From Bacteroidota bacterium (GTDB lineage: Bacteria; Bacteroidota; Ignavibacteria; UBA10030): a stretch of 64,000 nt of DNA. The notes beneath the pieces were generated by a model. That model was not told the origin of the DNA. It ran no database searches and saw only the letters and a list, made by a program, of their open reading frames with translations. This document shows, piece by piece, positions 14,293 to 44,208 of this stretch (positions are counted from its first letter, which is position 1; each line of letters begins with the position of its first letter). The stretch spans positions 13,703 to 77,702 of the forward strand of contig JBEKEV010000011.1 of NCBI GenBank assembly GCA_050013655.1. The letters are read 5' to 3'. Position numbers and translations under genes: made by a program.

Positions 14293-15570
14293 TTATGGGA
14301 GATTCCGGCCAAGATATGGAGCACCAAGCAACGGTGTATTATCTTCTTTTGCCATTCCTATTTTATATAGGCTAGTTGCCGTAGATGATCTTAGATATAA
14401 ATATCTTCCCCCACCCCAAATAAGTTGACTAATCCCTGTAGGCAAAATATTGTTATAGTAATAAGGTAAAAGGGAACCGTTCTCCAGTATATATAAAGAA
14501 TAGTTTGCATTACCAAGAAGAGAAACTAAAACCGTACCGTCAGAGGCAAAATTAAAAGAACTTACGGTACAACCTCTTAAACTTGTATCAGCTGCTATAT
14601 TGACGACCGGTTGTTTACTTCCAACAGTACCGTCAGGATTGATTGGACTTCTGAATAAGCTTGTCGCATCAGCTGCATAGACGTAACCATTATATATACG
14701 AATTCCTACGAATGTAGTACCAGCATAGTCGGCACTGCCAACAACAACCGGTGTTGTCGATCCTTGTTTTATTAAAATCAATCCACTTTTTGATCCATTA
14801 AAATAGATATCTCCGTTACTATTGAAATCAAATACTGAAGAACTGTAAGCTGCAGAAAATGTTACATAGGCTATAGGCGTAGCACTAGCAGTATCAAGTT
14901 GATAAATTGATTTGGATCCGGCGAATGTAGCATACAAGAATCCATGAGGCCCGAATTTCATGTCAGAAAAGGCTTTGACAAAATCTGTTGCTTTATTATT
15001 AATTTTTGTCTTAAAGTAAGAAGTATCTTTATATGGAATTAAATCAATTCCATTAGGCTTTAACATAGTGATATAACCCGTACTCGCTATCCATAGAGTG
15101 TCACCCCCAGCCGTACCATTTTTGTTTGCTTCCATTACACCAACGATTCCCGTCGGTATGCCGGTCAGGTCAGATGAGCTTATTGGAGATTCCAAGTTAT
15201 ATGAAAACTTACCTACAGAATCTGCTTGAAGAATGACTGCATTAATCGTTAAAGCTCCAGAAATGACCGGCCTGTAGACAACCAAAGTATCGGCAGCAGC
15301 TGACATCCGTTTTATAATCGCTTGTTCTGATCCGAAATAAATCCAATTCGAATCAAGCTTACTGGAGAATTTTCCTATGATTGAAATTTCTCTCACTCCA
15401 GCAAGAGCAGAATTTGCCGGCAATACACCTGTAATAACAGATCCGGTTGCATAAGATCTATTGGGATCCCACATTGTTGGAGGAGTCGAGAAATTGTTGC
15501 ATGCACTCAGGACAACAAGCATGAGAATAAAAAGACCGAAAACAAAATAAAATATAATTTTTCTTTTCAT
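14293..15570 (-). CDS. Hypothetical lipoprotein, beta-propeller-like
   Basis: Signal peptide with lipobox (VVLSAC); repetitive YxxAxD/NGDIYF-type motifs; no recognisable catalytic motif. Confidence 0.45.
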   Translation of the reverse strand: MKRKIIFYFVFGLFILMLVVLSACNNFSTPPTMWDPNRSYATGSVITGVLPANSALAGVREISIIGKFSSKLDSNWIYFGSEQAIIKRMSAAADTLVVYRPVISGALTINAVILQADSVGKFSYNLESPISSSDLTGIPTGIVGVMEANKNGTAGGDTLWIASTGYITMLKPNGIDLIPYKDTSYFKTKINNKATDFVKAFSDMKFGPHGFLYATFAGSKSIYQLDTASATPIAYVTFSAAYSSSVFDFNSNGDIYFNGSKSGLILIKQGSTTPVVVGSADYAGTTFVGIRIYNGYVYAADATSLFRSPINPDGTVGSKQPVVNIAADTSLRGCTVSSFNFASDGTVLVSLLGNANYSLYILENGSLLPYYYNNILPTGISQLIWGGGRYLYLRSSTATSLYKIGMAKEDNTPLLGAPYLGRNLP

Positions 15571-15589
15571 AATGATACCATTCTATATT

Positions 15590-16609
15590 TTACATTGAGA
15601 AAGATACTGTAAATCTTTGGACATTATTAAATACTCCAAAAGGCGTATAGGAATAATCAATCTGAAAATTGGCGGAAGATATACCTAAACCGGAAGATGA
15701 AATTCCTAAACCATACGTAACTCCATCTTCATCATCCCCGGTAATATACCCGCCCCGTAATGCAATTAAATTCATAAATTGATACTCTACACCTATTTTT
15801 ATTTGTTCCGGATGAGACATGGGATGGGTAACATCGCATGAGAGAATCAAAGATTGTTTCGGCCCCTTCAAATCGTAGAAATCAAAAAGATTTGCCGATA
15901 TACCGACAGTAAATATTAATGGAAGCTGGAAACTTTCTTCTTCGTAAGTAACATCATTTGAAAAATTCCTTATCGACATTCCAAAATCAATACTTTTGAT
16001 ACCTGTTTTAAAATTTGTACCGAAGTCATACGCAACCGCACTTGCTACGTTCTGTTTGGTAACTACCGTGTTCGCAGCAGTGGGCACTGCACTTTTTCCC
16101 AACGATTGATAGGCAAATCGAACTTGAGCGCCGACACCAAAACGATCAGAGATCATTTTTGCATACCCGATCCCTATCGCCATTGCAGTTGGGTCCATAG
16201 TACCGGTGTCAATATACCCCTGGCTATTATTCCACACCATTGTTCCCAATACGTCGCCATAATCGACAGATTGAAAACTCAGGCCAAGAACACCGTAATC
16301 TCCAGACCAAGGGGATATGATAGCGCTACAAGATAAATATTTAATATCTGCTATCCATTTATTAACGCTCACATTAGCAGTAAAAAAATTTGGCATTTCA
16401 GCCATCGTTGCCGGATTATGAGTTAATGCCGCCGAACAACCGAAGAGCGAATTCACAGCATCACCCATAGCGCCAGCTCTTGCATCAGATGATATGCTAA
16501 GAAAATCGAAACCGGTCTGCGCTAACTTTTCTTGTTGACCATAGGATAGAGATGCAGACAATCCGATTATCATAATCACTGTCAGGTATGTTATTATTAA
16601 TCGTTTCAC
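15590..16609 (-). CDS. Outer-membrane beta-barrel protein of the FadL-like / PorV-PorQ type; possibly a T9SS-associated outer-membrane protein
   Basis: Signal peptide ending ...SYGQQ; N-terminal FLSISSDARAGAMGDAVNS resembles the FadL/PorV family entry motif; alternating hydrophobic pattern; aromatic C-terminus (FTVSFSM). Confidence 0.4.
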   Translation of the reverse strand: MKRLIITYLTVIMIIGLSASLSYGQQEKLAQTGFDFLSISSDARAGAMGDAVNSLFGCSAALTHNPATMAEMPNFFTANVSVNKWIADIKYLSCSAIISPWSGDYGVLGLSFQSVDYGDVLGTMVWNNSQGYIDTGTMDPTAMAIGIGYAKMISDRFGVGAQVRFAYQSLGKSAVPTAANTVVTKQNVASAVAYDFGTNFKTGIKSIDFGMSIRNFSNDVTYEEESFQLPLIFTVGISANLFDFYDLKGPKQSLILSCDVTHPMSHPEQIKIGVEYQFMNLIALRGGYITGDDEDGVTYGLGISSSGLGISSANFQIDYSYTPFGVFNNVQRFTVSFSM

Positions 16610-16641
16610 CTTCTTATTTCTCCTGTTTAGAATGCCACCTG

Positions 16642-17526
16642 CTAGTACGACAAAATGACGACTTTAAATTGATTGGCTATGCTATTACTTGGACTTGCTG
16701 GTGTTGGATTACTTATTTGCGACGGATTAGTTAATGTGAACCGGACCAAGTAAACACTCCCTTGATCGAGATGAATAGTATAACGTGCACTAATAACTGG
16801 TACAATTTCTATTTTGTTGTTACCCGACAAGATTCTTTCGCTGGAATTATATGCTGATTCTGTCGATATCGTTGACGAAGGGCTTACAACCGACGTATCT
16901 CTTTTCACAAGGTCAATCGAAACATAATCATTAATATTAGAGGTTGCGTTTGTGGCATTATAATAATAAAGCAAACTCGTATAGAAATATATATCCTTCG
17001 CTTGGGCAGATTTCAATACTGCATAGCTTACCTTGCCTGAATAGTTTACGGCTATTAACGAATCTTGATGAAGTTCCGGAAGGACAGCTGCCAATGAGTC
17101 AAATCCTGATAGAATAATCTGATTATCAATTGTATCTCCGAGACTCTGAGAGTGAACAATGGACCAAGTAACAGGTAAAGATCGAAATGAAACAGGAGTA
17201 GGCGGCGTCGAATTGCTTAAACTGATCGGCTGGCCTGAGCCGTCAAGCGGAACATACTGATAAGAGGCTGTAAAACCTTGAACATCATTGAGAGTATCAC
17301 TCGTTAATAAATTACCTGCCTTTAAATCAATATCCGATGGAGTAAAATTTTTGGCTTTGAAGTCAGTTGGTAACAAACTATTACACCCAAGGCATGCGAA
17401 AAATAATGCACTCACCAGAAATAGGAAAATAGAGCGAACATAACTATCTTGATAATGAGGGTACATTTCGTTCTCCAAATAATTTGTATTATCTGATAAT
17501 GATAAATTTCCGGATGATATTCTCAC
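16642..17526 (-). CDS. Hypothetical lipoprotein (the likely start is the internal Met at about 17466)
   Basis: An internal signal peptide with lipobox (FFACLGC) follows a 20-aa leader; Ser/Thr-rich; no known domain recognised. Confidence 0.4.
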   Translation of the reverse strand: MRISSGNLSLSDNTNYLENEMYPHYQDSYVRSIFLFLVSALFFACLGCNSLLPTDFKAKNFTPSDIDLKAGNLLTSDTLNDVQGFTASYQYVPLDGSGQPISLSNSTPPTPVSFRSLPVTWSIVHSQSLGDTIDNQIILSGFDSLAAVLPELHQDSLIAVNYSGKVSYAVLKSAQAKDIYFYTSLLYYYNATNATSNINDYVSIDLVKRDTSVVSPSSTISTESAYNSSERILSGNNKIEIVPVISARYTIHLDQGSVYLVRFTLTNPSQISNPTPASPSNSIANQFKVVILSY

Positions 17527-19783
17527 CCTTTCTCAAAATCAATTGATTACTCGTATCGTCATAAATATCTTGTGTAACTTCGAAATATGCAATATATAAC
17601 CCACTCACTACAATTTGCTTAGAAGAAGTCAGTGAATTCCATGTTTCATCACCGCTTCCATTTGTATGATTGATGGTCTGAATCAAATCCCCTGCTTCAG
17701 TAAATATTTTAATCACACAATATTTTGGCAACCCAAAAAATGCAAGCCGGTTTGCTACCGTTCTATCCGTGCCGAATTGAAGTGATGCTGCTTTGATATT
17801 GTATGGATTAGGAACTACTCGAATATCTGAAAGCTTATTGGCAGCTGGTCGCTGCAATGAAGCAGATATATTGGTCATCGTATAGAACATGTTACTTACC
17901 AAAGGCACGCCGGGTTCAATATCGTTTGTTGTCCCATTATCCTTGGTTTGGATATAATAAAAGTAGTTAAATCCTCGTTTTGCTGATTTATCATCATAGG
18001 AATTCGTTACAGTGCTCTTATCACAAGAAAATATCAACTCGAATTTTGTAGCGGTTGTAGTTTCTGCACGATACAGCCGATACCCGTCAAAAGTAGGCCA
18101 CGATTCTGCACTCTTAGACCATTGCAACGAAATTCTATCACCGCCCGATGTCACTGTAAAATCATCCGGCGGTGGCGGAGGCTGAGGAATATTGTAATGA
18201 CTGTTGTAGTTTGCTCGTGCACGCCGAAATGTTTGGAACAATGAATCCCTTCCACTAAACACCCAGGCATTCTTATAGATATTACCATCTGTAGTCGTGC
18301 CTCCATTCCAGGGATTCCAGGACCCTACAGGAAGTGTAGGGTCAGTAGAAGGAAGAGTAAGAGGTATCGTATTACCACTTTTACCATTTTGATACCAGGG
18401 CCACCAGCTCTTTACTATTTCGATATTTTTTTCACGACTTATTCCTGCAACTGCCTCGGCAATAACAATCCGGATACTATCGCCTGGTGCAAGTGTATAT
18501 GGCCCAAATCCCTGCTGGTTGCCATACCCGCCCGTATTTCCACCCCACGTATTGCCAAAACCTGTGGGCCATCCGTTTGCATCTTTTCCAAGTTGTTCGG
18601 CATGAGTTTTTGCATCATGACCGGATGTCATTGATTGATATTGCTGCGTCATGGTAATTGGATTAAACGGACTTGACTGAGTGATATTTTCTATGACACC
18701 ATCCGAACCCATAAATGTCGTCGTTCGCGGCTGGGTAGGATCATTTGCAGTGTCCTGCGGGGATGTATCTGCATGTAATACCATTTCACCTGTAAATCCG
18801 ATGCCACCCAGAATATGTCCATCCAGAAAATCTGGCGCACCAATATCATCCAACACTCCTGTCGAAGAAGATTGAGGTCCATAATATGCAAAGCTCGCAC
18901 AAAAATTATTCGGAGCAGGAAGTGTATGTGTCGCATCTTGTCCCACTGCATCATTGATAGTGTTATGTCCATAACTGATTTGGGGATATCCCCATGCCTG
19001 CTCATAGCCCTCATTATTATCGGCAAACCGATATCTGAAATCAAATACCACACCGGTCAGTGTTTTTGCCGGCGTGATTTGCCCTCCGGTATTATCGCTC
19101 AAACCCGTATTCTTAAAAACATATTCGTAGATGTAATAATTATCGTGGTACTGTTGCGTAGAGGCGAGGACTTTTCTATAGATTGTTATACCTATCGGTG
19201 TATTCACACTGTTGTAGACCATTCGATCCACAGGCAAATTTGAAACAATTCGATCTTGATCTGCCCCTCCCTCAGTAATAGCTTGATTAAGATCATTCGC
19301 CATAGTAGGTTGAGTAAGATCATTCTGATCAAGATCACTGGCTTTATTGCCATCTACGATAACCGTAGGCGCAGCAGAACGGCCAATCAATTTAAAATTT
19401 ACTGGATAGGAAGCAGAATTGACATACAGTGCCGCTCGTCCAAGAGGAATGACTTTGTAAGGATATGTTACACCATTTGTTGGATCTGTAAAATTCGTTG
19501 TACCAATCCATAATGCTTTTCCCACATTATGATCCGTAGACGGATATTGCGCAGGCCAGCGTAAGCCATCATCCTGATCTGTATTTAAATAACCCCTCCC
19601 CCTTCTGCCGTATTCAACTTCAGCACCAGTGCTGGAAAAATATTGCCGTAAAGAACTCACCCATAACCATTTAACGACCTGCGGTCCAAAAACCTGGGCT
19701 TGTAATTGCTGGGTAGTAATTATTCCATATGCACTATACAGCGAAATTACTATGAGAGCTTTTGCCAGATATTTTTTAATCAT
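17489..19783 (-). CDS. Large secreted protein with poly-Pro linker, FN3-like domain and a variant T9SS C-terminal domain; function unknown
   Basis: Signal peptide; PQPPPPPDDFTVTSGGDRISLQW (FN3-like); C-terminus VVPNPYN...VIKIFTEAGDLIQTI...SGLYIAYFEV...RKFIIIR resembles a Por secretion tail. Confidence 0.5.
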   Translation of the reverse strand: MIKKYLAKALIVISLYSAYGIITTQQLQAQVFGPQVVKWLWVSSLRQYFSSTGAEVEYGRRGRGYLNTDQDDGLRWPAQYPSTDHNVGKALWIGTTNFTDPTNGVTYPYKVIPLGRAALYVNSASYPVNFKLIGRSAAPTVIVDGNKASDLDQNDLTQPTMANDLNQAITEGGADQDRIVSNLPVDRMVYNSVNTPIGITIYRKVLASTQQYHDNYYIYEYVFKNTGLSDNTGGQITPAKTLTGVVFDFRYRFADNNEGYEQAWGYPQISYGHNTINDAVGQDATHTLPAPNNFCASFAYYGPQSSSTGVLDDIGAPDFLDGHILGGIGFTGEMVLHADTSPQDTANDPTQPRTTTFMGSDGVIENITQSSPFNPITMTQQYQSMTSGHDAKTHAEQLGKDANGWPTGFGNTWGGNTGGYGNQQGFGPYTLAPGDSIRIVIAEAVAGISREKNIEIVKSWWPWYQNGKSGNTIPLTLPSTDPTLPVGSWNPWNGGTTTDGNIYKNAWVFSGRDSLFQTFRRARANYNSHYNIPQPPPPPDDFTVTSGGDRISLQWSKSAESWPTFDGYRLYRAETTTATKFELIFSCDKSTVTNSYDDKSAKRGFNYFYYIQTKDNGTTNDIEPGVPLVSNMFYTMTNISASLQRPAANKLSDIRVVPNPYNIKAASLQFGTDRTVANRLAFFGLPKYCVIKIFTEAGDLIQTINHTNGSGDETWNSLTSSKQIVVSGLYIAYFEVTQDIYDDTSNQLILRKGENIIRKFIIIR

Positions 19784-19817: not shown

Positions 19818-22800
19818 TTATAAATTAAACGATAGATTAATGCCATAGTAAAATTGTCTTGGATTCAGAAAATCAAAGGAACTGTTGTTCGGCATATCGA
19901 TATATTCCTTATTATCTAAAATCTTTTTCATCTTGTTTTGATCTACTACAGACCAGCTACCATTGATATAGTTCATATATCTACCAGTTGGACTATCATA
20001 ATAGATAACAGTAGGATCGAAAGCAGATGATTGTGTATTGATTCCGTTTACGTTTCCGCTAAAAAGAATCGGAGTATATACGCCATCTGTACAATATGCC
20101 CCTACCCGATCATTGCCAGGAATATTTGTATTACTATATGCAGGGCTTTGAGGTAAATGCAGCGATTCCATATAAAAATTGAAGTCGCTCGGATCATAGA
20201 AGCTTTCTCCCGACAACCTCTTCGCATTCAATAAGTTGTTCGTCTCCATGAACACCGTTACTGCAAAATTTTTGAAAGAGAAAGTTTTATTGAGGCGAAT
20301 GTTTACATTGAAATAATCTGTAACCTGAACGTTATTTTGGATAGCGGTGGCTAGCTGCGGATTATATGTAAGCCATTGACCGGCTTTCCAGTTTGCTACG
20401 ATATTAAGAGACCAATCACCCAGAAGATCACCTCCGAGGAAATGAGGCCCAAAATTTATCGGTGTTAAAAACGTAATACTTGCATTAGCACGAGGTTGGG
20501 CAACCGGTGTTTGTCGAACAAGCAGATATAACGGATTCGTCTGACTATTGTCGAGTATTGCTTGTTCGGCTGGATTATCAGCAATGGCTACTTGGCCAAA
20601 TTGACCCGACGTTGCCACTTGGTATATGTAATTAATAAAACCCCGTACCCAGTCACCGGAAGTTTTTCTGAGAGTTAACTCAAGTCCTCGAACATCCGAA
20701 TAGCTATTGTTGTTGGCTGCATAGTAAGCAATACTTTTCTGATCACTCGTATAAAATGTAAATGCCTGCTGAGATGAAATATCATTATAAAAAGCTGCAA
20801 TTTGAATCAAGTATGTATCAAAGAGAGACTGATCAAAACCTAATTCATAAGAGACGGTTTGAGCTTGTGGCAAATTCGGATCACCATAATTGCGCAAATC
20901 GCCTGCTTGTCCACGACCTATTCTGTAAATCTCATCATAGGAAGGCATCTCTTTAAAGTGTCCGTAATTAAAATACAGTTTTGAACTTTCTGTAATCGGA
21001 TGCGAAATACCTAATCGGGGACTGAAAGAAATGTCAGTCTTAACACGTTCTTTCGCATATTGAATAGTATCATTATAGGCAGCGGAGAAAAAGGATTGAT
21101 TAAAAGGATCCGCAGCAGCATCAACCCAATCAGTATTTGGATTGCTTATGTCCATTCTTACGCCGAGATTGGCGATAAATCCATATGCTTCTATCTTATC
21201 CTGTACATACGCAGAGATAAGGTAGGGATTGAAATGCTGTTTCACCCAATCCACATCACTGAAAGCCGGATTCACTGTACCATAATTCATATTAAGATCG
21301 TAATATGAAAATTCAAATCCTGCTTTAAACATATGCTCTTTAGTAGCTTGACTTGTTATATCTCCCTTAATTTTCAGCGTATTCAGCTTGCTGGAATCAC
21401 GTGCAGTAGCACTGTGACCACCAAAGAATAAAGACGCATCTCCAATACCTGATGTCAGCTGAGAACTATATCCGTAAGGTGCTTCATCAACAAAATACCC
21501 CGGAGCTATTTCATAATTTTGGGCAGTATCCCTTGCAGCAATAGGTCCCGTGAGATAGCTACGATGTTCATCTTGTATACTTATTTCATAATACGTCGAT
21601 AAGCTTAACATAGAAGTGATTTTTGCACCTACATTGAAATCACTGACAACTGCCGGACAATACCAAGAATCATCATATACCCTGCTTGACCTTTGTTCAT
21701 ACGTAATACCAGCTATTTGATCTGGTGTTCGCAGATAGTCTGTCGGATTCCAAAATGGGTAAGTCCCTGGAGCCTGTGTGAGCCAAGCCTGATTGTAATA
21801 TCCGTTATCAGTCGCGTTAATAGCGACATTATAGGATTTACCTATCGAGGCATTTAGCAACAGTTTCGTTTTGTTGTTTATATCTGAATTCAACTTAATT
21901 GACCAGTTATAATCCTCATAATCTGGACGGCTGAGAGGAATAAGAAGCATTTCTTTGTTCATAATAAAACTTGTAAAGAACCGAAGATTGCCCAAATCCT
22001 CACCAATGATTGGTATAGGCCCGCCAATACTACCGTCAATATTATAATCGGGTGAGTTCGTAGAAGGAGTTAGTCTATGTTGGTACTCATAGAGACGTTG
22101 ACACGCTGCGGGCGAAAGATCAATACCCTGTTGCAAATATTGTTGAGAAATAGCGTTCCAGCCGACAAACTTAGGATATTGATTCTGAGTATATATGCTC
22201 CATGCCCCGTTATTAGTACCCGTCCAACAAACGGCAGGGTCCATATAGGGGCGGTTCCACATCGAATTAGGATCATACTCAGACATTCCGAAATATTTCT
22301 GTTGTGGAGGACTGTACTTTACATTTATGGAACCAGAATAATGAGAAACATCCCCTTCCTTTTGGACGATATTTACAACACCGGAGCGCGCCTGTCCATA
22401 CTCTGCGGCAAAACCTCCCTTTTCTATCGAAACTTCCTGAATGGAAGTTAAGGCAATATTAGAAATAGGTTTATTGTTTCTGGGATCACGTTGAGTTGTA
22501 CCATCTACATTAAGAAGCATGTCGCTTGCGTTGCCGCCTCTAATGACAAAACCATCTTCCACTCCTGCTTGCAAGCCCACCATATCATTAATCGAAGTTA
22601 CGGGAAGAATTGTCAATTCCTCAGGCTGTACTGTACTGACACTGGAGGATACATCCTTTTTGACGACGTGTCTTTCAGCAACAACTTCAACAATTCCCGA
22701 TTCAATTGCTTGAGTCTCCATTTCAACGTTAACAGTTGCAGTTTGATCTATAAGAACACGTATTCCATTCACAGTGACCGTCGAATAACCAACCATACTT

Positions 22801-23039
22801 GTTATAATATTATGGATACCAGGCGGAACAGATAGAATTGCATAGTACCCATCAATATCTGTGGCCGCGCCCAGAGATGTTCCCTTAACAATGACATTAA
22901 GGCCGACAAGCGGTTCACGAGTTTCTTTGTCCACAACTCTGCCAGCTATTTTTCCTGTCGTCCCTGCTAAAATAATATTTACCGTCAGTGCAAAAAGTAA
23001 GGCAAAATAGATAAGAATTCGGTATTGACCCGATACCAT
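19818..23039 (-). CDS. TonB-dependent outer-membrane receptor, SusC-like, with N-terminal CarboxypepD_reg domain and no SusD partner
   Basis: 1073 aa; GKIAGRVVDKETREPLVGLNVIVKGTSLGAATDIDGYYAI (CarbopepD_reg); a TonB-box-like VEVVAER; plug and long beta-barrel; C-terminal aromatic residue; strong AAGGAG Shine-Dalgarno. Confidence 0.8.
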   Translation of the reverse strand: MVSGQYRILIYFALLFALTVNIILAGTTGKIAGRVVDKETREPLVGLNVIVKGTSLGAATDIDGYYAILSVPPGIHNIITSMVGYSTVTVNGIRVLIDQTATVNVEMETQAIESGIVEVVAERHVVKKDVSSSVSTVQPEELTILPVTSINDMVGLQAGVEDGFVIRGGNASDMLLNVDGTTQRDPRNNKPISNIALTSIQEVSIEKGGFAAEYGQARSGVVNIVQKEGDVSHYSGSINVKYSPPQQKYFGMSEYDPNSMWNRPYMDPAVCWTGTNNGAWSIYTQNQYPKFVGWNAISQQYLQQGIDLSPAACQRLYEYQHRLTPSTNSPDYNIDGSIGGPIPIIGEDLGNLRFFTSFIMNKEMLLIPLSRPDYEDYNWSIKLNSDINNKTKLLLNASIGKSYNVAINATDNGYYNQAWLTQAPGTYPFWNPTDYLRTPDQIAGITYEQRSSRVYDDSWYCPAVVSDFNVGAKITSMLSLSTYYEISIQDEHRSYLTGPIAARDTAQNYEIAPGYFVDEAPYGYSSQLTSGIGDASLFFGGHSATARDSSKLNTLKIKGDITSQATKEHMFKAGFEFSYYDLNMNYGTVNPAFSDVDWVKQHFNPYLISAYVQDKIEAYGFIANLGVRMDISNPNTDWVDAAADPFNQSFFSAAYNDTIQYAKERVKTDISFSPRLGISHPITESSKLYFNYGHFKEMPSYDEIYRIGRGQAGDLRNYGDPNLPQAQTVSYELGFDQSLFDTYLIQIAAFYNDISSQQAFTFYTSDQKSIAYYAANNNSYSDVRGLELTLRKTSGDWVRGFINYIYQVATSGQFGQVAIADNPAEQAILDNSQTNPLYLLVRQTPVAQPRANASITFLTPINFGPHFLGGDLLGDWSLNIVANWKAGQWLTYNPQLATAIQNNVQVTDYFNVNIRLNKTFSFKNFAVTVFMETNNLLNAKRLSGESFYDPSDFNFYMESLHLPQSPAYSNTNIPGNDRVGAYCTDGVYTPILFSGNVNGINTQSSAFDPTVIYYDSPTGRYMNYINGSWSVVDQNKMKKILDNKEYIDMPNNSSFDFLNPRQFYYGINLSFNL

Positions 23040-28970: not shown

Positions 28971-30681
28971 TTATCGAAATATATAATACAAACAAACAAA
29001 TGTTATGAGTACAATGACGGAGAGAATGCGATAATTCCCGAGAGCATGTCCGTGTGCTTCACCTTTTAACGGCTCCCGCCAATTTTTCCACACCAGTAAT
29101 TTTGCTTCTTCTTTGAGCGGTTCAGGAAGGCTGTGAGAAGCAAACACCATGATGGCACTGCAGATAACTAACAGATAAAACGCAGTCATCATAAAGTTTC
29201 CACTATACACTCCATTCCAATCAAGGAGAAACATGACAAATCCGAGAACGGCACCGGAGACCAATGTCATATATGCAGCCCTGCCTGACGCCTTTTTCCA
29301 GAATACACCGAAAAGAAAAACGGTGGTGATAGGCGGGGCGATGTACGAAATCAACTTGTTCAATCCCTCGATAATAGTATTGTAATGACCAAAGATCGGT
29401 GATAAAACAACGGCTAGAATTGTGGCAACAACCGTGGTTATTTTTCCTATCACAACGAGCTGGTGATCGTTGGTCTTCGGACGCCACCTTTTGAATATGT
29501 CATAGGAAAACAACGTCGCTGTAGAATTGAGTGCTGCTGAGCAGGTCTGCATCGCCGCCGCAAGCATCGCAGCGGTGATAAGGCCTTTCAGGCCGATTGG
29601 CAATATATGCATGATCATGAATGTATAGGTGTCAGCCGCCGATTTCGGGGCTTCACCATGAAAGTAATTATTCTGAATAAGGGCTACACAAATAACTCCG
29701 GGCAGTACAAAGAAGAATACCGGAAGAATTTTAAGGAATGCACAAAACAATGGTCCTAAGCGCGCTTGTTTTTCATCCTTCGCTGCAAGAACTCGCTGTA
29801 CAATCGTTTGATCACATGCCCAATACCAAATCCCGAGCACAGGGTATCCCAAGAGAATGGAGTACCATGATAATCCGGAAGGATCGCCGTCAGAACGTAT
29901 CATACTTAAGAAATTGCTTGTATTCCACATAATCCCGGAACCTGCTTTTCCCGCCAGAGGATGCGGTTGTGTGCTCAGCGTCTGGACTAACACGTTCCAT
30001 CCTCCAATTTTAATATACCCAACCACAGTGATACAGATTGCACCGGCCAAAAGCAATATTGTCTGTACGCTTTCTGTTAATACAACCGCGAGCAATCCGC
30101 CAATCATCGTATAAATACAGGTAAGAACACCGAGCACGATGATGAAGAACATCAAAGCATCGATACCAAAAATTTCTGCACCGGGCGGAATATTCATGAT
30201 GCCGCGCAATACCCAAGCCGCAGTATATAAAGCGACTCCGATATGAATAACAACCGCTGATATAATAGAGATTATCGCCAACCAATCACGGCAATGACGA
30301 TTGTATCTTCGTTCTAGATAATCCGGTAATGTAGGTACACGTGAGCGTAAATAGAGCGGTGCAAAGAATAGCGAGAGAAGAATGAGTGTGAATCCCGCCA
30401 TCCATTCGAAGTTGCCGTAAATCAATCCATATTTATATGCCGACTCTGCCAAACTTACTAAATGGACTGTGGAAATATTTGCCGCAAACATAGCCAACCC
30501 GATAACCGGCCACGTCAGTGTATTCCCTGCTAAAAAGTAATGGCTTCCTTCTCCCCCTTTCCGTCTCTTGAAACCCCGACCATATTCCTAATCCGACAAT
30601 TCCAACCAAATACAAAATGATGATCGTATAATCGATGGACGAGACGTTCATGGTGGACACCCTTTTGAATGAATTGCTCAT
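28971..30681 (-). CDS. Sodium:solute symporter (SSS family) carrying an apparent +/-1 frameshift at about 30550-30560 (C5 homopolymer)
   Basis: ORF 30433..30681 encodes the N-terminal TM1 (MNVSSIDYTIIILYLVGIVGLGIWSG...ERGRRK). After a 1-nt frame change the reading continues GEGSHYFLAGNTLTWPVIGLAMFAANISTVHL... into ORF 28971..30497. The joined reading is a canonical SSS N-terminus. Confidence 0.7.
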
Positions 30682-30683
30682 TC

Positions 30684-31830
30684 TTAATCAAGTTTTCTTC
30701 GAATCTTTATTTGCATTGCGCCGGCAATTGGTTTTTCAGAAACAAGTATGAGATATCCGCCACCGCCGGCTCCTGAAAGTTTCCAGCCGTACGCTCTTTC
30801 TTTATACTTGTCAATTGTCTTTAAGATAAAATCATCGATCATACTCGGGAACATTGTTATCTGTGCTTCAAACGACGCTCGAAAATATTTTCCAAAACTT
30901 TCCAGATCATGATTCAGAATTGAATTCCAACACCGTTCCGTTGCGTCAGCCAGATCCTTCGCCAAACGTTCATTGATTCTTGTATGATCCAACACATCAT
31001 ATCCGGAGTCTCTTGGTTCAAGAGTGACAAGGTAGAGGTGCTGTTCAATCCAGGATAATATATTTTCATCATCTACTGTCGTGATGTGTTTTGGCCAGTA
31101 CTCGCCGTCGTACTCAAGCTTATTGAGAGCGGGCATGATTATTCCCAGAGCGTCCTGGGAGCCGGCAATCACTTTACTTCCGGGAGGATTTTCAAAACAA
31201 AAAAGGAGTCGCGCAAGATGTTCTTTGTCTCCCGAAGGTACATCTGTGTGCCAGAGTTTAATTGCTTGTCTTCGCGTGCTCGAAGCCATCCCACTGCGTT
31301 CATTGAATTCAATGGTCGGTTCAATGGAAATAGTCACAACCGACCCTGGGAGAATATTTTCCGACATAGGGCTGATCAAGCCATCCTCCTGCAAGGTCTA
31401 TTCGATAGGGCATCGTACATTCTTCTCTCAACGATGTGGAGGAACGGACTGGTAAATGGTTATGTGGAATCCTTTTGAGTACTAAATACTCAATTCCAAG
31501 TTTCTTGCTTAATTCTTCTTTCGCAAGAGTATTTCCATCTTCATTGACTATAAATATATCCGGTTGTAGTTGTTTGATCTCTTCAATAAAATCGAGGAGT
31601 CCGCTGCCGAAATTGATCTGACAATGATTCACGCATGATAATGCCTGAAGCATATATTTCCGTTCATCCTGGTTGTTCACCGGATAACGGCCTTTGAGGG
31701 CAGAAACAGTACTATCACTGCCAAGTCCGACATAGACATCTCCATATTGAGCTGCCTCTTGCAGAAACGCAATATGTCCGCTGTGGAGCATATCAAAGCA
31801 TCCAGTCACAAAAACTTTTTTCTTGCCCAT
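30684..31830 (-). CDS. Fusion of an HldC/RfaE-domain-II-like nucleotidyltransferase (cytidylyltransferase fold) to a GHMP sugar kinase, split by an apparent frameshift near 31345-31365
   Basis: The N-terminal 140 aa KVFVTGCFDMLHSGHIAFLQ...LGSDSTVSALKG..RYPV is the HIGH-motif nucleotidyltransferase; then RIDLAGGWLDQPYV (GHMP motif 1). The overlapping ORF 30684..31394 continues GSVVTISI... and holds GWKLSGAGGGGYLILV (GHMP motif 3). Confidence 0.6.
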
Positions 31831-31967: not shown

Positions 31968-32069
31968 TTATTGCTTGTCCATCCCTAAATAGTTGATCCA
32001 TGGAAGCGATGTATCCGGCTTCGTAATTATATATTCCCGATTTTTATCATCAAAATATCCGTAGCTCAT
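31968..32069 (-). pseudogene. Remnant of a GH94 phosphorylase N-terminus (33 codons then a stop)
   Basis: Minus-strand [33 protein letters not shown](stop) is about 75% nucleotide-identical to the 5' end of the GH94 gene at 3160-3265. Confidence 0.6.
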
Positions 32070-32101: not shown

Positions 32102-34498
32102 TTACATTTCAACAAGAACTTCATTGTTCTCCATCATTCGATCAAGAGGAATAAGATTGTCGTCGATGACATTACCATTTAAAATGATTTTTTTTACACC
32201 TTTCTGAGCCCCATTCTTATTTTTTATCATAATGTCAAAATTTTTATTTCTGAATCTTCGCGTAATTTTCACTTCTTTCCATTTCGATGGAATACAAGGA
32301 TCGATCCTTAATCCGAAATAATCGGGCTGAATACCAAGAATATATTGTGCGGCAGTATAATATGCCCACGATGCCGTTCCACTCAGCCATGGCAACCGTG
32401 AAGCGCCATAGCGCGGACTGTACTTGCTATGGGTAAACTGACAATACACATATGGTTCAGTTTCGCGCACTTCGGCTTTTTTATTATACGCGGAAGGCAT
32501 AAACTTGCGAAAATATTCGTAAGCGCGATTACCTCTGCCTGTTAATGCCTCTGCCATAACCACCCAGCTTTGAGTATGCTGAAAAATCGAGGCGTTTTCT
32601 TTCATCCCTTTATTGAACAATCTTGCTTTAATCACCTTGTGATCGGTTTTCTCGACAGGCGGATCGCAGATCATAAGTCCATACTCTGTTGATAATCGCT
32701 TCCGAACAACATCCAATAAATTTCCTGATTGTTCCTTGTCTGTATGTCCGCTGATCACTGCCCAAGGCTGCGGTTCTAAGAACATTGATGCCTCTTCATT
32801 TTCTTTCGAACCGAATTTCAGACCATCAGCCCTGTAAGCGCGCAAATACCATTCACCGTCCCACGCATGCTTTTCAAGATTTTCATCAAGAGCATTCAGA
32901 TGACCCTCTGCCCATTTTACCTCTTCAGGTTTATTGAACATCATTGCAATTTCGATGTACGTTTTGAGCGCATAGCGAAGTTGAAAAGCTACAAATGTCG
33001 TCTCGCCATCTTGTCCGAGAACCAAACAATCATTCCAATCAGCCGATAGACCGCAGGGAAAACCATGCTTGCCTGAATGATCAAGATTAAATTGTATTGC
33101 CCGGCGAAGATGCCCGAACACAGTATCTTCTCCCTTATCGGCGTATGGAAGGACTTTTTTGTAGAAAGAAATGTCTCCGCTCTCTTTTACATAGGCCGGA
33201 ATGGTATTAAAGAGCCACATACAATCATCTGAGCGATATTCTTTTTCGTCAGGTGCTTTTTCCTTTCCGGGTGTATGCGCAAACGGCTTGACCACAGGCA
33301 TCGCGCCGCCGCTGGAAACCTGCCCTGTGATCATCAATTCAAGCCGCTCTTTCACATCGTCGGGAATCGAATGAAGAATGCCGAGCAAATCCTGAACCGT
33401 ATCACGGTACCCAAGTCCATCCCGCTCACCTGAATATACCAGACTTGCTGCACGCGACCATGCAAATGTCATTAAATTGTTGTACGGATTCCATGTATTG
33501 AACATACTGTTAAAATCGGCATCTGGAGTTATCGCTGTCATACCGGCAATTCTTGAGTGCCAGTATTCTTTCAGCTTTGCAAATTCCTCACGTACTTTGT
33601 CCGGATTTCCCAATTCTCGAACTGCTTGTTTTCCTTCAACACTGGCAGCACCGATGCCCATTAGCACAACTAACTCTTTCGATTCTCCCGGCTTCAAATC
33701 GATGTCGACTTGCAATGTTCCGCATGCATTATCACCGACTGCTTTTGAGTTTTTGCATTTTCCTTTTTCGACAACAAGAGGATTCGCATATGTGCGGTAC
33801 GGACCGATAAATATTTCTCTATCAGTATCATATCCTTTCACCTTTGCACCGGAAAGAGCAAGAAATGTATGACGCCCTTGTCCATTGTCTTCGAATTTAT
33901 CCGGTAGTGCGGGCATAAAGACATTGGTCCCATGATCGATGATATTTCCAACGACATCCATCTTCATGATGTATTGTGAATACTGTAGATTGATCATATC
34001 TTGCGAGAGATTCCAGTTGTTTGCATACTCGACAAATGTAAAAACACTCAATCTTCTTTTTTTCTTTCCAGTATTTGTTATTTTCATCAGCCAGCATTCG
34101 TACATTTTGCCAAGCGGGACAAAGTATAATGTTTCCGTTTTGATGGAAGAATATTCGGAAGAGATTTTCGTATACGCAGAACCATGACGGCATTCGGATT
34201 TATATTCCTTCAAAGATTTTCCAACGGGCTGCCACGAAGCCGACCAATAATCCTTGCTGTCCTTATCACGCAAGTAAAGATAACGGCCCGGCTGATCCAT
34301 CGGAATAACATTGAATCGGAGGCGCGTGAAGCGGCCCTGTGCAGCAGATTTCACAAAGCTGTATCCGCCAGCATTGTTGGTAATAATTGCACCGTATTCT
34401 GTCGAACCCAAATAATTACTCCATGACTTCGGAGTATCCGGTCGTTTCATCACGTATTCTTTATTCTTATCGTCAAAAAATCCATACTGCATATTCAA
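32102..34498 (-). CDS. GH94 glycoside phosphorylase, cellobiose/cellodextrin/chitobiose-phosphorylase type (second paralog)
   Basis: 798 aa; N-terminus MNMQYGFFDDKNKEYVMKRPDTPKSWSNYLGS; GH94-like throughout; diverged from the gene at 827..3265. Confidence 0.85.
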   Translation of the reverse strand: MNMQYGFFDDKNKEYVMKRPDTPKSWSNYLGSTEYGAIITNNAGGYSFVKSAAQGRFTRLRFNVIPMDQPGRYLYLRDKDSKDYWSASWQPVGKSLKEYKSECRHGSAYTKISSEYSSIKTETLYFVPLGKMYECWLMKITNTGKKKRRLSVFTFVEYANNWNLSQDMINLQYSQYIMKMDVVGNIIDHGTNVFMPALPDKFEDNGQGRHTFLALSGAKVKGYDTDREIFIGPYRTYANPLVVEKGKCKNSKAVGDNACGTLQVDIDLKPGESKELVVLMGIGAASVEGKQAVRELGNPDKVREEFAKLKEYWHSRIAGMTAITPDADFNSMFNTWNPYNNLMTFAWSRAASLVYSGERDGLGYRDTVQDLLGILHSIPDDVKERLELMITGQVSSGGAMPVVKPFAHTPGKEKAPDEKEYRSDDCMWLFNTIPAYVKESGDISFYKKVLPYADKGEDTVFGHLRRAIQFNLDHSGKHGFPCGLSADWNDCLVLGQDGETTFVAFQLRYALKTYIEIAMMFNKPEEVKWAEGHLNALDENLEKHAWDGEWYLRAYRADGLKFGSKENEEASMFLEPQPWAVISGHTDKEQSGNLLDVVRKRLSTEYGLMICDPPVEKTDHKVIKARLFNKGMKENASIFQHTQSWVVMAEALTGRGNRAYEYFRKFMPSAYNKKAEVRETEPYVYCQFTHSKYSPRYGASRLPWLSGTASWAYYTAAQYILGIQPDYFGLRIDPCIPSKWKEVKITRRFRNKNFDIMIKNKNGAQKGVKKIILNGNVIDDNLIPLDRMMENNEVLVEM

Positions 34499-43355: not shown

Positions 43356-44208
43356 TTATTGTCTCACTAACCTGATCAGCAAGACATCGTGCACTGGGAT
43401 CTCAGCACTCAAGATTTTTGATGTTGTACCGAGAGATTTTTTTGCCCAAAGGTCTCGAATACTATACGTGGCCTCTTTCGCATTTAACGTTTTCTTCGAA
43501 ATATCATCGCCTACAACATTGGCTGCCCAATCAAATTCCAGTTTGTGAACTTGTTCAGTTCGATTGAGAAAACAGATTGCCCAATCGCCCTGGACTAACG
43601 GTTTCGCCCACACTTCAACTCCTTGCGCGCAACTGTTAAATCTGAATCCTTGCACACCAAGAGAATCCTGATCGATGGCAATCACTTCTTTATTGACAAG
43701 AATCTCTCTTATTTCTTTCTTCATACTCCTCAAATCATTCCCTGCCATGAGCGGAGCTGCCATCATACACCACAACGAAAAATGTGCCCGGTCTTCACTC
43801 AATGACATCCCTCGCCCAACCTCCATCATATCGGGATCATTCCAGTGATCAGGTCCTGCATAGGAGCGAATATCTTTTCGCATCTCAACAATTTTCATAA
43901 TACCCCACGACGACCACGTGCCATGGTTCACTTCACAGTCAAAGCAATCTTTTATATCACCCGTAGTTCGCCAGAGGTGCCCGACATCCTTTCCCCATTT
44001 CCAGGGATCGTTATTTCCCCACTCGCATAGACTGAAAACGATCGGTCTACCGGCAGTATGCAGCTATAAATACAGGATTCGATTGACTTTTGCCAACAAG
44101 TCCTATTGTGATATTCTTTTCCTTTTTTTGTGTATTGCCTGCAACGGCTAAAATCACTGACACACCGAGAAGAACAAAACATGTACACAAAATAGATCTG
44201 TAATTCAT
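43356..44208 (-). pseudogene. Truncated GH27 alpha-galactosidase remnant: a signal peptide, then a frameshift at about 44063, then only the C-terminal part of the GH27 domain
   Basis: The frame opening at 44063 reads AGRPIVFSLCEWGNNDPWKWG...DHWNDPDMMEVGRG...AHFSLWCMMAAPLMAGNDLR (GH27 blocks). The preceding roughly 170 aa, including the nucleophile Asp region, are absent. An upstream MNYRSILCTCFVLLGVSVILAVAG signal-peptide ORF lies in another frame. Confidence 0.6.

Follow-up and report, generated by a model that had tools for sequence, protein, structure and literature searches.

A frameshifted fusion of a cytidylyltransferase-like nucleotidyltransferase with a shortened GHMP kinase in an Ignavibacteria genome, a predicted compact analogue of FKP in L-fucose salvage

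What could a protein do that joins a nucleotidyltransferase to a sugar kinase of an unrelated kind, and is it the product of one gene at all when the reading frame is broken? These questions are raised by a locus in a 64,000-nucleotide stretch of DNA (the window, whose positions are used below) from a Bacteroidota bacterium of the class Ignavibacteria (assembly GCA_050013655.1, contig JBEKEV010000011.1, positions 13,703 to 77,702). Positions 30684-31830 of its minus strand, with the stop codon at 30684-30686, hold a fusion gene for a nucleotidyltransferase/GHMP-kinase protein of 381 amino acids (aa), which is frameshifted as written and becomes one full open reading frame (ORF) on removal of a single base. 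We consider it probable, judging from sequence, predicted structure and gene context, that the gene encodes a compact bifunctional L-fucokinase/fucose-1-phosphate nucleotidylyltransferase, an analogue of FKP from Bacteroides fragilis.

Two overlapping ORFs are found on the minus strand: the first (31321-31830, 169 aa) has the N-terminus MGKKKVFVTGCFDMLHSGH, and the second (30684-31394, 236 aa) has the C-terminus GWKLSGAGGGGYLILVSEKPIAGAMQIKIRRKLD. Joined together, they give a single protein of 381 aa. An earlier note on this DNA had described the fusion as unusual, and had allowed that it might prove to be two unrelated genes that merely overlap. The latter idea fails, since intact one-ORF homologues are abundant; the fusion is a true single gene, frameshifted in this copy, because more than 100 listed homologues are intact single ORFs of 381-382 aa. 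Nor is the fusion rare. In a search of 5.8 billion proteins the joined protein was matched by more than 7,990 significant clusters, and scanning one genome per species revealed at least 483 fusion loci. The best 120 matches all cover at least 96% of the query with 69-97% identity, and all but one of these 120 are 380-402 aa long, mostly 381-382 aa. Carriers of the fusion include Ignavibacteria, Chitinophagaceae, Saprospiraceae and Bacteroidales (among them Tannerella forsythia ATCC 43037, Dysgonomonas and Prevotella) and, beyond Bacteroidota, Verrucomicrobiota, Planctomycetota, Acidobacteriota and Anaerolineae. The fusion thus truly exists and is frequent in the Bacteroidota-Ignavibacteria (FCB) and Planctomycetes-Verrucomicrobia (PVC) groups, and "unusual" has to be withdrawn. 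In the source databases the homologues are named only "cytidyltransferase-like protein" or "adenylyltransferase/cytidyltransferase family protein".

The N-terminal domain (about aa 1-138; 31417-31830, minus strand) belongs to the cytidylyltransferase-like nucleotidyltransferases both by score and by motifs. PF01467 (CTP_transf_like) matched aa 8-136 with 45.8 bits against a gathering score of 21, TIGR00125, the generic adenylyl/cytidylyltransferase model, gave 55.9 bits against a cut-off of 27.7, and PDB and Foldseek matches point to the same fold. The sequence TGCFDMLHSGH carries the GCFDxLHxGH-type signature that had been read there before. In it lies the HxGH nucleotide-binding motif as H-S-G-H (aa 16-19; 31774-31785, minus strand), conserved in 91 homologues; in the numbering of P0001, the protein of the closest relative, H17 is nearly invariant and H20 invariant. 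A second motif, R-S-S-T-S-L-R (aa 129-135; 31426-31446, minus strand), aligns to "SSSSVR" of 3glv and is the counterpart of ISSTxxR/RTxGISTT, and its R130, S131 and T133 (P0001 numbering) are invariant in the same homologues. With these motifs the domain has the look of a nucleotidyltransferase of the HIGH-motif kind that is catalytically intact. Among the specific NCBIfam models TIGR02199 (rfaE_dom_II; 68.3 bits, E=6e-19) came out best, though well under its equivalog cut-off of 181.5, and identity as an HldC equivalog was rejected. In sequence and fold the domain is about equally close to ECT, Fom1 cytidylyltransferase, HldC, 3glv and TagD (PDB profiles and Foldseek). The earlier label HldC/RfaE-II-like thus names the right fold family, while the domain itself is a generic cytidylyltransferase-like member. 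With the HldE model NF008454 the protein scored only 51.6 bits against 521, and PfkB gave no match; the kinase is of the GHMP type and C-terminal, the reverse of the domain order in HldE, just as the earlier note had it.

The C-terminal domain shows the GHMP kinase features RIDLAGGWLDQP and GWKLSGAGGGGY on which that note had based its assignment, and it resembles FKP in sequence and GHMP kinases in fold. On the joined protein the Pfam model GHMP_kinases_C scored 19.8 bits, below its cut-off of 21; the same family (PF08544) is recorded in some close homologues and exceeds 21 bits in P0126 and P0152. The assignment rests on motifs, profile alignments and fold, because GHMP_kinases_N was undetected and GHMP_kinases_C stayed sub-threshold. 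With the C-terminus of FKP there is a match over some 75 residues at the end of the protein (E=2e-13, NCBIfam). An AlphaFold2 model (predicted local distance difference test 75.9, predicted template modelling score 0.79) was used for the fold search, and the best full-length Foldseek matches were WcbL heptokinase, the FKP kinase domain, HddA of Cj, MDD and GalK, each with probability 1.00, so the GHMP fold is recovered. All three motifs of the GHMP superfamily are present as well, namely motif I, a variant motif II (RSGMASST) and motif III (GAGGGGY).

These motifs can be placed residue by residue on enzymes of known structure. Motif I with the sugar-binding segment, P-Y-R-I-D-L-A-G-G-W-L-D-Q-P, lies at 31369-31410 on the minus strand; in the HMMER alignment FKP residues 590-603 (PVRIDMAGGWTDTP) fall on PYRIDLAGGWLDQP, and FKP R592, W599 and D601 correspond to R144, W151 and D153 (P0001 numbering), which are invariant. 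The variant motif II, the phosphate-binding loop R-S-G-M-A-S-S-T-R-R (31269-31298, minus strand), was located with a profile of the stand-alone domain ("sGlatSt") against GSGLGTSS of the heptose kinase 3k85, which HMMER aligned to RSGMASST; R179, S180, G181, M182 and S185 (P0001 numbering) are invariant. The G-S-Q-D motif with the predicted catalytic Asp (31152-31163, minus strand) is in register with G759-W-Q761-D762 of FKP and with GKQDQ of 3k85. In detail, FKP 757-763 (GGGWQDQ) aligned to (I/V)(A/S)GSQDA, FKP G759, Q761 and D762 correspond to G224, Q226 and D227 (P0001 numbering), and G-S-Q-D is invariant in the family. A conserved Glu, E214, is the counterpart of FKP E751 by spacing and by the 3k85 alignment. 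Motif III, K-L-S-G-A-G-G-G-G-Y (30753-30782, minus strand), aligns with KLPGAGGGGYL of FKP, the homologous stretch being KLSGAGGGGYL.

All the fucose-contact and catalytic residues of FKP that we compared (R592, W599, D601, G759, Q761, D762 and E751) thus have their counterparts. In crystal structures of FKP, R592 and D762 flank the anomeric oxygen of fucose, W599 stacks on C4-C6 of the sugar, and D601 and Q761 bind its hydroxyls; the W599A and D601A mutants lost more than 3000-fold in kcat/Km, and E751A and D762A were inactive (PMC11982464). The heptose kinase 3k85 has a Gly at the position of W599. Because the counterparts of the FKP residues are invariant across the family, the C-terminal domain looks like an active fucokinase-type GHMP kinase. 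An early suggestion that PPGSKVIAGSQDA was a degenerate motif II, which would have made the domain a pseudo-kinase, was dropped, as the profile alignments place motif II at RSGMASST and the catalytic Asp at GSQD. The middle of the domain aligned as a single sequence found no matches in the PDB; the stand-alone-domain profile gave the alignments.

The C-terminal domain is not confined to this fusion. An exhaustive search with this domain only returned 747 representative clusters, in which it stands alone (about 240 aa, in many clusters) or with a cytidylyltransferase-like domain (about 380 aa). It is further fused to GDP-mannose 4,6-dehydratase (Gmd) and to a GT2 or DXD glycosyltransferase, and it forms three-part fusions of rhaM mutarotase or a PNP_UDP_1 phosphorylase-like domain with the transferase and the C-terminal domain. 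It is also found behind two tandem transferase domains among the proteins of other fusion types (P0121, P0125, P0126, P0139, P0144 and P0148). One Sedimentisphaerales locus (L005, 4150-7464) has two fusion paralogues, 46% identical to each other, on either side of an Fcl-like gene, and genes for FucP, LpxK, HldE, a HAD phosphatase and GT9 come after them. Motif III of the second copy deviates (ITSGCGGGY), and this paralogue may use a different substrate or nucleotide.

Which sugar is used was approached through gene neighbourhoods. ORFs were called in 81 loci, the neighbouring genes were grouped into clusters, and the clusters that recurred were annotated. In 40 of the 81, one or more fucose genes lie within 8 kb. 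The L-fucose:H+ symporter FucP occurs in 21 loci (TIGR00885 above cut-off), mostly as the next gene downstream on the same strand; GDP-L-fucose synthase Fcl follows with 13, GH29 alpha-L-fucosidase with 12 and a short-chain dehydrogenase/reductase gene with nine. A rhaM-family mutarotase and a class II aldolase were each present in eight loci; Gmd (580 bits against 415), L-fucose isomerase FucI (1110 bits against 775) and a sodium:solute symporter (SSF) of the window type in six each; and an FGGY rhamnulo/fuculokinase in five. The operons include gmd-fcl-FUSION-rhaM-fucP in Melioribacter, fucP-FUSION-gmd-fcl, fucA-fucI-fucK-FUSION-fucP-GH29, fucK-fucA-fucI-x-FUSION-fucP...GH29, fucI-fucP-FUSION in T. 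forsythia (L082/L083, 4567-9140, with the fusion gene at 8001-9140 of L082) and fucI-...-fucK-FUSION-SSF. A salvage role, in which imported fucose would be channelled to the pool of nucleotide sugars, fits this arrangement, because the fusion stands both in fucose-catabolic and in GDP-fucose-biosynthetic operons. The window-type SSF gene lies inside the fucI-fucK operons of L019 and L022 and follows the fusion in L008, L035 and L078. Since SSF takes the place of FucP in the fucI-...-fucK-FUSION-SSF operons and in the window, the SSF partner is likely a fucose importer. Between fucI and the FGGY kinase gene, L019 (3490-6402) and L022 (3529-6364) share three conserved genes with products of about 241, 472 and 230 aa; our guess is that they are LutABC-like lactate-utilisation proteins.

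Outside evidence comes from Akkermansia muciniphila. Lakey et al. (Gut Microbes, June 2026) reported that all 12 D-arabinose-resistant suppressor mutants hit Amuc_1591, and that L-fucose or mucin relieves the toxicity of D-arabinose (PMC13313206). They described Amuc_1591 as an N-terminal adenylyl/cytidylyltransferase with a C-terminal sugar-kinase-like domain resembling the kinase of FKP and, from suppressor genetics and modelling, proposed it as a "previously uncharacterized fucose-nucleotidyltransferase" (PMC13313206). Using the Amuc_1591 sequence from the supplement of that paper, we found 35% identity with the window protein over 194 aa (BLASTP, E=2e-31, aa 5-185); by hhalign the N-terminal half matches with a probability of 99.7% and the C-terminal domain, over 186 columns, with 93.4%. 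The suppressor change G326E falls in the loop equivalent to motif III, which fits the kinase-like domain being functionally required. A homology search from a Verrucomicrobiae query returned no Akkermansia orthologue and no protein with V176 and G326.

From the conserved one-ORF architecture, the kinase residues, the fucose context, the other fusions of the C-terminal domain (with Gmd, glycosyltransferases and rhaM mutarotase) and the Akkermansia genetics, the earlier proposal of a sugar-1-kinase/NDP-sugar pyrophosphorylase for salvage, with fucose among the candidate sugars, gains support. Fucose would be imported by the SSF symporter (FucP in other genomes), and the mutarotase, where present, would supply the right anomer. 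The C-terminal domain would then phosphorylate L-fucose at O1, the anomeric oxygen, with ATP, D227 acting as base and R144 stabilising, and the RSGMASS and GAGGGG loops would hold the phosphates in this step. The N-terminal domain would join fucose-1-phosphate to a nucleoside triphosphate with release of pyrophosphate. The product would be an NDP-L-fucose, most likely GDP-beta-L-fucose, for fucosyltransferases and cell-surface glycans. GTP is the most likely nucleotide because the gene is linked to gmd-fcl and fucosyltransferases universally use GDP-fucose; provided that the rest of the reading holds, GDP-fucose would be the somewhat more probable product. That the kinase is active, that fucose is its substrate in the cell and which nucleotide is used are three things that we infer, each for itself; the fusion with its conservation, the retained residues and the fucose context are what the sequences show.

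Several points weigh against this reading. Motif I and motif II are separated by about 30 residues in the domain of about 240 aa, against about 60-120 in 3k85 and FKP; about 60-90 residues of the canonical GHMP N-lobe are absent, most of the N-lobe sheet among them, and Pfam GHMP_kinases_N gave no match in the joined protein. Loss of kinase activity is compatible with such a shortened N-lobe and might have happened. About half of the 81 loci have no fucose gene nearby, and Pfam annotation of the 64-kb window revealed no fucosidase, fuc catabolic or other fucose-specific gene. To our knowledge, the characterised enzymes of the cytidylyltransferase fold take ATP or CTP (some HldE homologues take UTP) and not GTP. 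The genome of T. forsythia carries the fusion next to fucI-fucP, and nonetheless this bacterium is stated to lack the FKP salvage pathway and loses L-fucose from its O-glycan when fcl is deleted (PMC8698959). In the medium of that study salvage may have stood idle for want of free fucose or of induction; alternatively, the enzyme makes something other than GDP-L-fucose.

Another doubt concerns the state of this copy. The break lies at plus-strand GGG, CCC on the coding strand, at 31348-31350, where close relatives have GG/CC (blastn against L001, the contig of P0001). P0001, with 97% protein identity, reads QPYVGKYSPGSVLTISIEP in one frame, and in the DNA alignment with L001 (97% nucleotide identity) the window has TTCTCCCAGGG against TTCT-CCAGGG, with one extra C on the coding strand. 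The shorter run is also present in L008, L035 and L088, which align without gaps to the corrected gene. The earlier note had the frameshift right as the sequence is written, and placed it in a T4/A4 run at about 31356; the A4 run (31357-31360) encodes the conserved G-K-Y of G-K-Y-S-P and is still in the first frame, so the true break is 8 nt away from the position given. Deletion of one base restores the complete ORF of 381 aa, and the corrected gene has no further indels or stops relative to L001, L008 and L035. The downstream SSF gene (28971-30681, minus strand; Pfam SSF) is frameshifted as well: its coding strand has GGGG where L001 has GGG, which is plus-strand CCCC at 30574-30577. Without the extra base it gives an ORF of 569 aa, with the second Met as the likely start, making 559 aa as in relatives. 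Against L001, L008 and L035 the ratio of nonsynonymous to synonymous substitution (dN/dS) was 0.10-0.17 for the fusion gene and 0.11-0.22 for SSF, with 0.04-0.09 for the intact GH94 and MFS neighbours. Both genes are thus under purifying selection by this measure.

As written, both genes would be non-functional, through either very recent inactivation or sequencing or assembly error. The breaks should be very recent or artefactual because of the purifying selection, the otherwise clean corrected ORFs and the relatives in frame. We give about an even chance to sequencing or assembly errors, in which case the organism would have intact and functional fusion and SSF genes: both indels are +1 insertions in short G/C homopolymers, one base removed from each gene leaves a full ORF without other defect, dN/dS (0.10-0.22 against three relatives) is of similar order to that of intact neighbours, and all five close relatives are intact and in frame. 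A search of metagenomes for the frameshifted allele retrieved only the wild type (the source contig of L035, with the shorter run) and gave no independent support for the insertion. Against an error, the rest of the window holds long uninterrupted ORFs, yet both indels are found in adjacent genes of one operon, and the region shows genuine gene decay (a GH94 remnant, a GH27 fragment and a sugar-binding-protein fragment, described below). We lean slightly to real decay from the intact ORFs elsewhere, the two indels in one operon and these other remnants.

For the family, the same two-step chemistry on another sugar, such as D-arabinose, L-galactose, L-rhamnose or a manno-configured one (mannose, heptose), would be the first alternative to fucose, and we think it unlikely. 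It draws on generic polysaccharide or lipopolysaccharide (LPS) contexts: L005 adjoins HldE, a GmhB-like gene and GT9, and L007 lies in an exopolysaccharide cluster. Further, the partner mutarotase belongs with rhaM, rhamnulokinase is the best-scoring match of the FGGY kinase, the Akkermansia enzyme evidently accepts D-arabinose, and the window locus itself is a glucan/mannan/galactose degradation region. However, the recurrent partners are fucose-specific, with FucP and FucI above their equivalog cut-offs beside GH29, Fcl and Gmd; the "epimerase" and "MFS" genes of L005 cluster with Fcl and FucP; and the fucose-contact residues of FKP are conserved, including the Trp that is Gly in 3k85. Mannose or heptose had been our candidate when the first three neighbourhoods showed Gmd, unspecified epimerases, HldE, a GmhB-like gene, GT9 and GH130 (L001); it was dropped when the "epimerase" and "MFS" neighbours turned out to be Fcl and FucP and fucose-specific genes dominated the 81 loci.

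It is still less probable that the C-terminal domain only binds sugar phosphate or regulates, so that the protein would be a fucose-1-phosphate nucleotidyltransferase in need of a separate kinase. The truncated N-lobe and the undetected GHMP_kinases_N agree with this, and Lakey et al. call Amuc_1591 a nucleotidyltransferase with a substrate-binding C-terminus (PMC13313206). But from phylum to phylum there is no variation in the Asp of GSQD, the Arg of motif I, the Glu, the phosphate loop or the Gly-rich motif III, which is unexpected for mere binding; no separate fucose 1-kinase recurs in the neighbourhoods; and the domain occurs also alone or fused to Gmd or glycosyltransferases. The bifunctional kinase and nucleotidylyltransferase stays our preferred reading.

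The least credible alternative returns to the broken copy: a +1 slip at CCC-AGG-G (tRNA-Pro before a rare AGG codon) would yield some full-length enzyme, and at UCU-CCC-A-GGG (31344-31353, minus strand) it would restore the conserved S-P-G-S-V exactly, CCC-N and hungry AGG codons being prone to shifting in E. coli, but such translational bypass is very improbable, as the arrangement exists in no relative and hence is not a conserved programmed signal, no stimulatory element was seen (no search aimed at one was made) and the frameshift of SSF lacks such a motif. A conserved programmed frameshift was ruled out, all relatives being in frame.

In Bacteroidota and Verrucomicrobia, protein O-glycosylation, fucosylation of capsule and LPS, and mimicry of the host all depend on a supply of GDP-L-fucose. 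Until now only FKP, of 949 aa, has been credited with salvage, and organisms lacking FKP, such as T. forsythia, were assumed to use Gmd/Fcl only. A widespread alternative of 381 aa would change how pathways are reconstructed in many bacteria of the gut, the mouth and the environment, and would explain sugar toxicity such as that of D-arabinose in Akkermansia. As a small catalyst on one polypeptide it would also serve the chemoenzymatic synthesis of nucleotide-fucose and analogues, and structurally the shortened GHMP domain deserves attention. In annotating this genome, it matters that the copy appears inactivated or mis-sequenced. A bolder idea, to which we give little credence, is that the family is the main fucose-activating route in FCB and PVC bacteria without FKP, T. 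forsythia included. If this were true, its HIGH-motif domain would be the first cytidylyltransferase-fold guanylyltransferase acting on a sugar-1-phosphate or, alternatively, a source of ADP-, CDP- or UDP-L-fucose for an unrecognised class of fucosyltransferases or for signalling, and the kinase of about 240 aa would be the smallest functional GHMP sugar kinase known.

The window as a whole is a large region for plant-glycan degradation with 42% GC. It contains two GH94, three GH5, two GH3 and one GH2 genes, GalK/GalT, three SSF, an MFS_2 transporter and an aldo-keto reductase, as well as enzymes with type IX secretion tails, a TonB-dependent receptor and a sigma-54 two-component system. Upstream of the fusion is a GH94 glycoside phosphorylase gene (32102-34498, minus strand; Pfam Glyco_hydro_94 and GH94_b-supersand), whose synteny is kept in L001, L008 and L035. 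The spacer between them holds the remnant of a second GH94 N-terminus (31980-32068, minus strand), seen by alignment to the L001 contig, and at its position L035 has an intact second GH94 of 814 aa. L001 retains about 300 nt more of the GH94 wreck, including a called ORF of 59 aa. Promoter-like sites overlap the spacer with the remnant. Downstream of the GH94 gene, the fusion and SSF genes together give the impression of a small, portable module that was inserted there.

Other broken genes lie further away. At 43356-43931 (minus strand) a GH27 alpha-galactosidase is represented by no more than its C-terminal 191 aa (Melibiase_2 positions 209-284 and the C-domain), with no upstream continuation, and an ORF of 53 aa at 44047-44208 (minus strand) resembles the N-terminal end, signal peptide included, of a periplasmic sugar-binding protein. 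Both fragments suggest real gene decay or rearrangement in the region. Downstream of a TonB-dependent receptor-like gene (19818-23039), four consecutive ORFs (14293-19783, minus strand; 425, 339, 294 and 764 aa) matched nothing in Pfam at E<=1e-5. They may encode glycan-binding surface proteins or lipoproteins, so far uncharacterised, of a locus resembling a polysaccharide utilisation locus.

Among known systems, FKP (PDB 5YYS, 9IIP and 9IIT; NF009948) converts free L-fucose to a nucleotide sugar in two steps, as is predicted for the fusion, and has its domains in the same order, with the transferase N-terminal and the GHMP kinase C-terminal. The kinase domains are homologous and have in common the Arg, Trp and Asp of motif I, GxQD, the Glu and motifs II and III. 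In contrast, FKP has 949 aa and a pyrophosphorylase of the NTP-transferase type with a beta-helix, whereas the fusion has 381 aa and an unrelated HIGH-motif cytidylyltransferase-like domain of about 140 aa, and its kinase is about 60-90 residues shorter between motif I and motif II. With NF009948 the protein scored 49 bits against 721, matching only in the last 75 or so residues and motif I.

HldE/HldC have the same nucleotidyltransferase fold and act on a sugar-1-phosphate, and HldE carries kinase and nucleotidyltransferase on one polypeptide as here. However, the kinase of HldE is PfkB-type and N-terminal, and its pathway needs the intervening phosphatase GmhB; a true HldE coexists with the fusion in L005. 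The GHMP heptose kinases HddA/WcbL (PDB 3K85, 4N3O and 4USK) come next after FKP among kinases of solved structure, by fold and by profile, and are of the same GHMP subfamily with RIxLAGGxxD and GAGGGG motifs. Unlike the domain here, they are full-size (about 340 aa), stand-alone enzymes acting on heptose 7-phosphate, and 3k85 has Gly in place of the Trp.

In the literature searched there was no biochemical description of the cytidylyltransferase-GHMP family, and the Akkermansia paper was the only related report. Amuc_1591 has the same two-domain architecture, is homologous in both domains and bears the same generic NCBI name, and the motifs GCxDxxHxGH, AGGWLD, RSG, GxQD and a Gly-rich loop are shared, which makes the window protein one of the Amuc_1591 type. 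Amuc_1591 is a distant sister: its C-terminal domain is about 23% identical, its motif III reads GGGYGGY against GAGGGGY, and it lies in the murJ transcription unit with no adjoining transporter or fuc genes. What the fusion presents is an FKP-like job, predicted for a different nucleotidyltransferase fold joined to a minimal GHMP kinase, and it was foreshadowed by that 2026 report. It is not a conceptual surprise, and it gives a testable prediction in enzymology for the annotation of Bacteroidota and Verrucomicrobiota.

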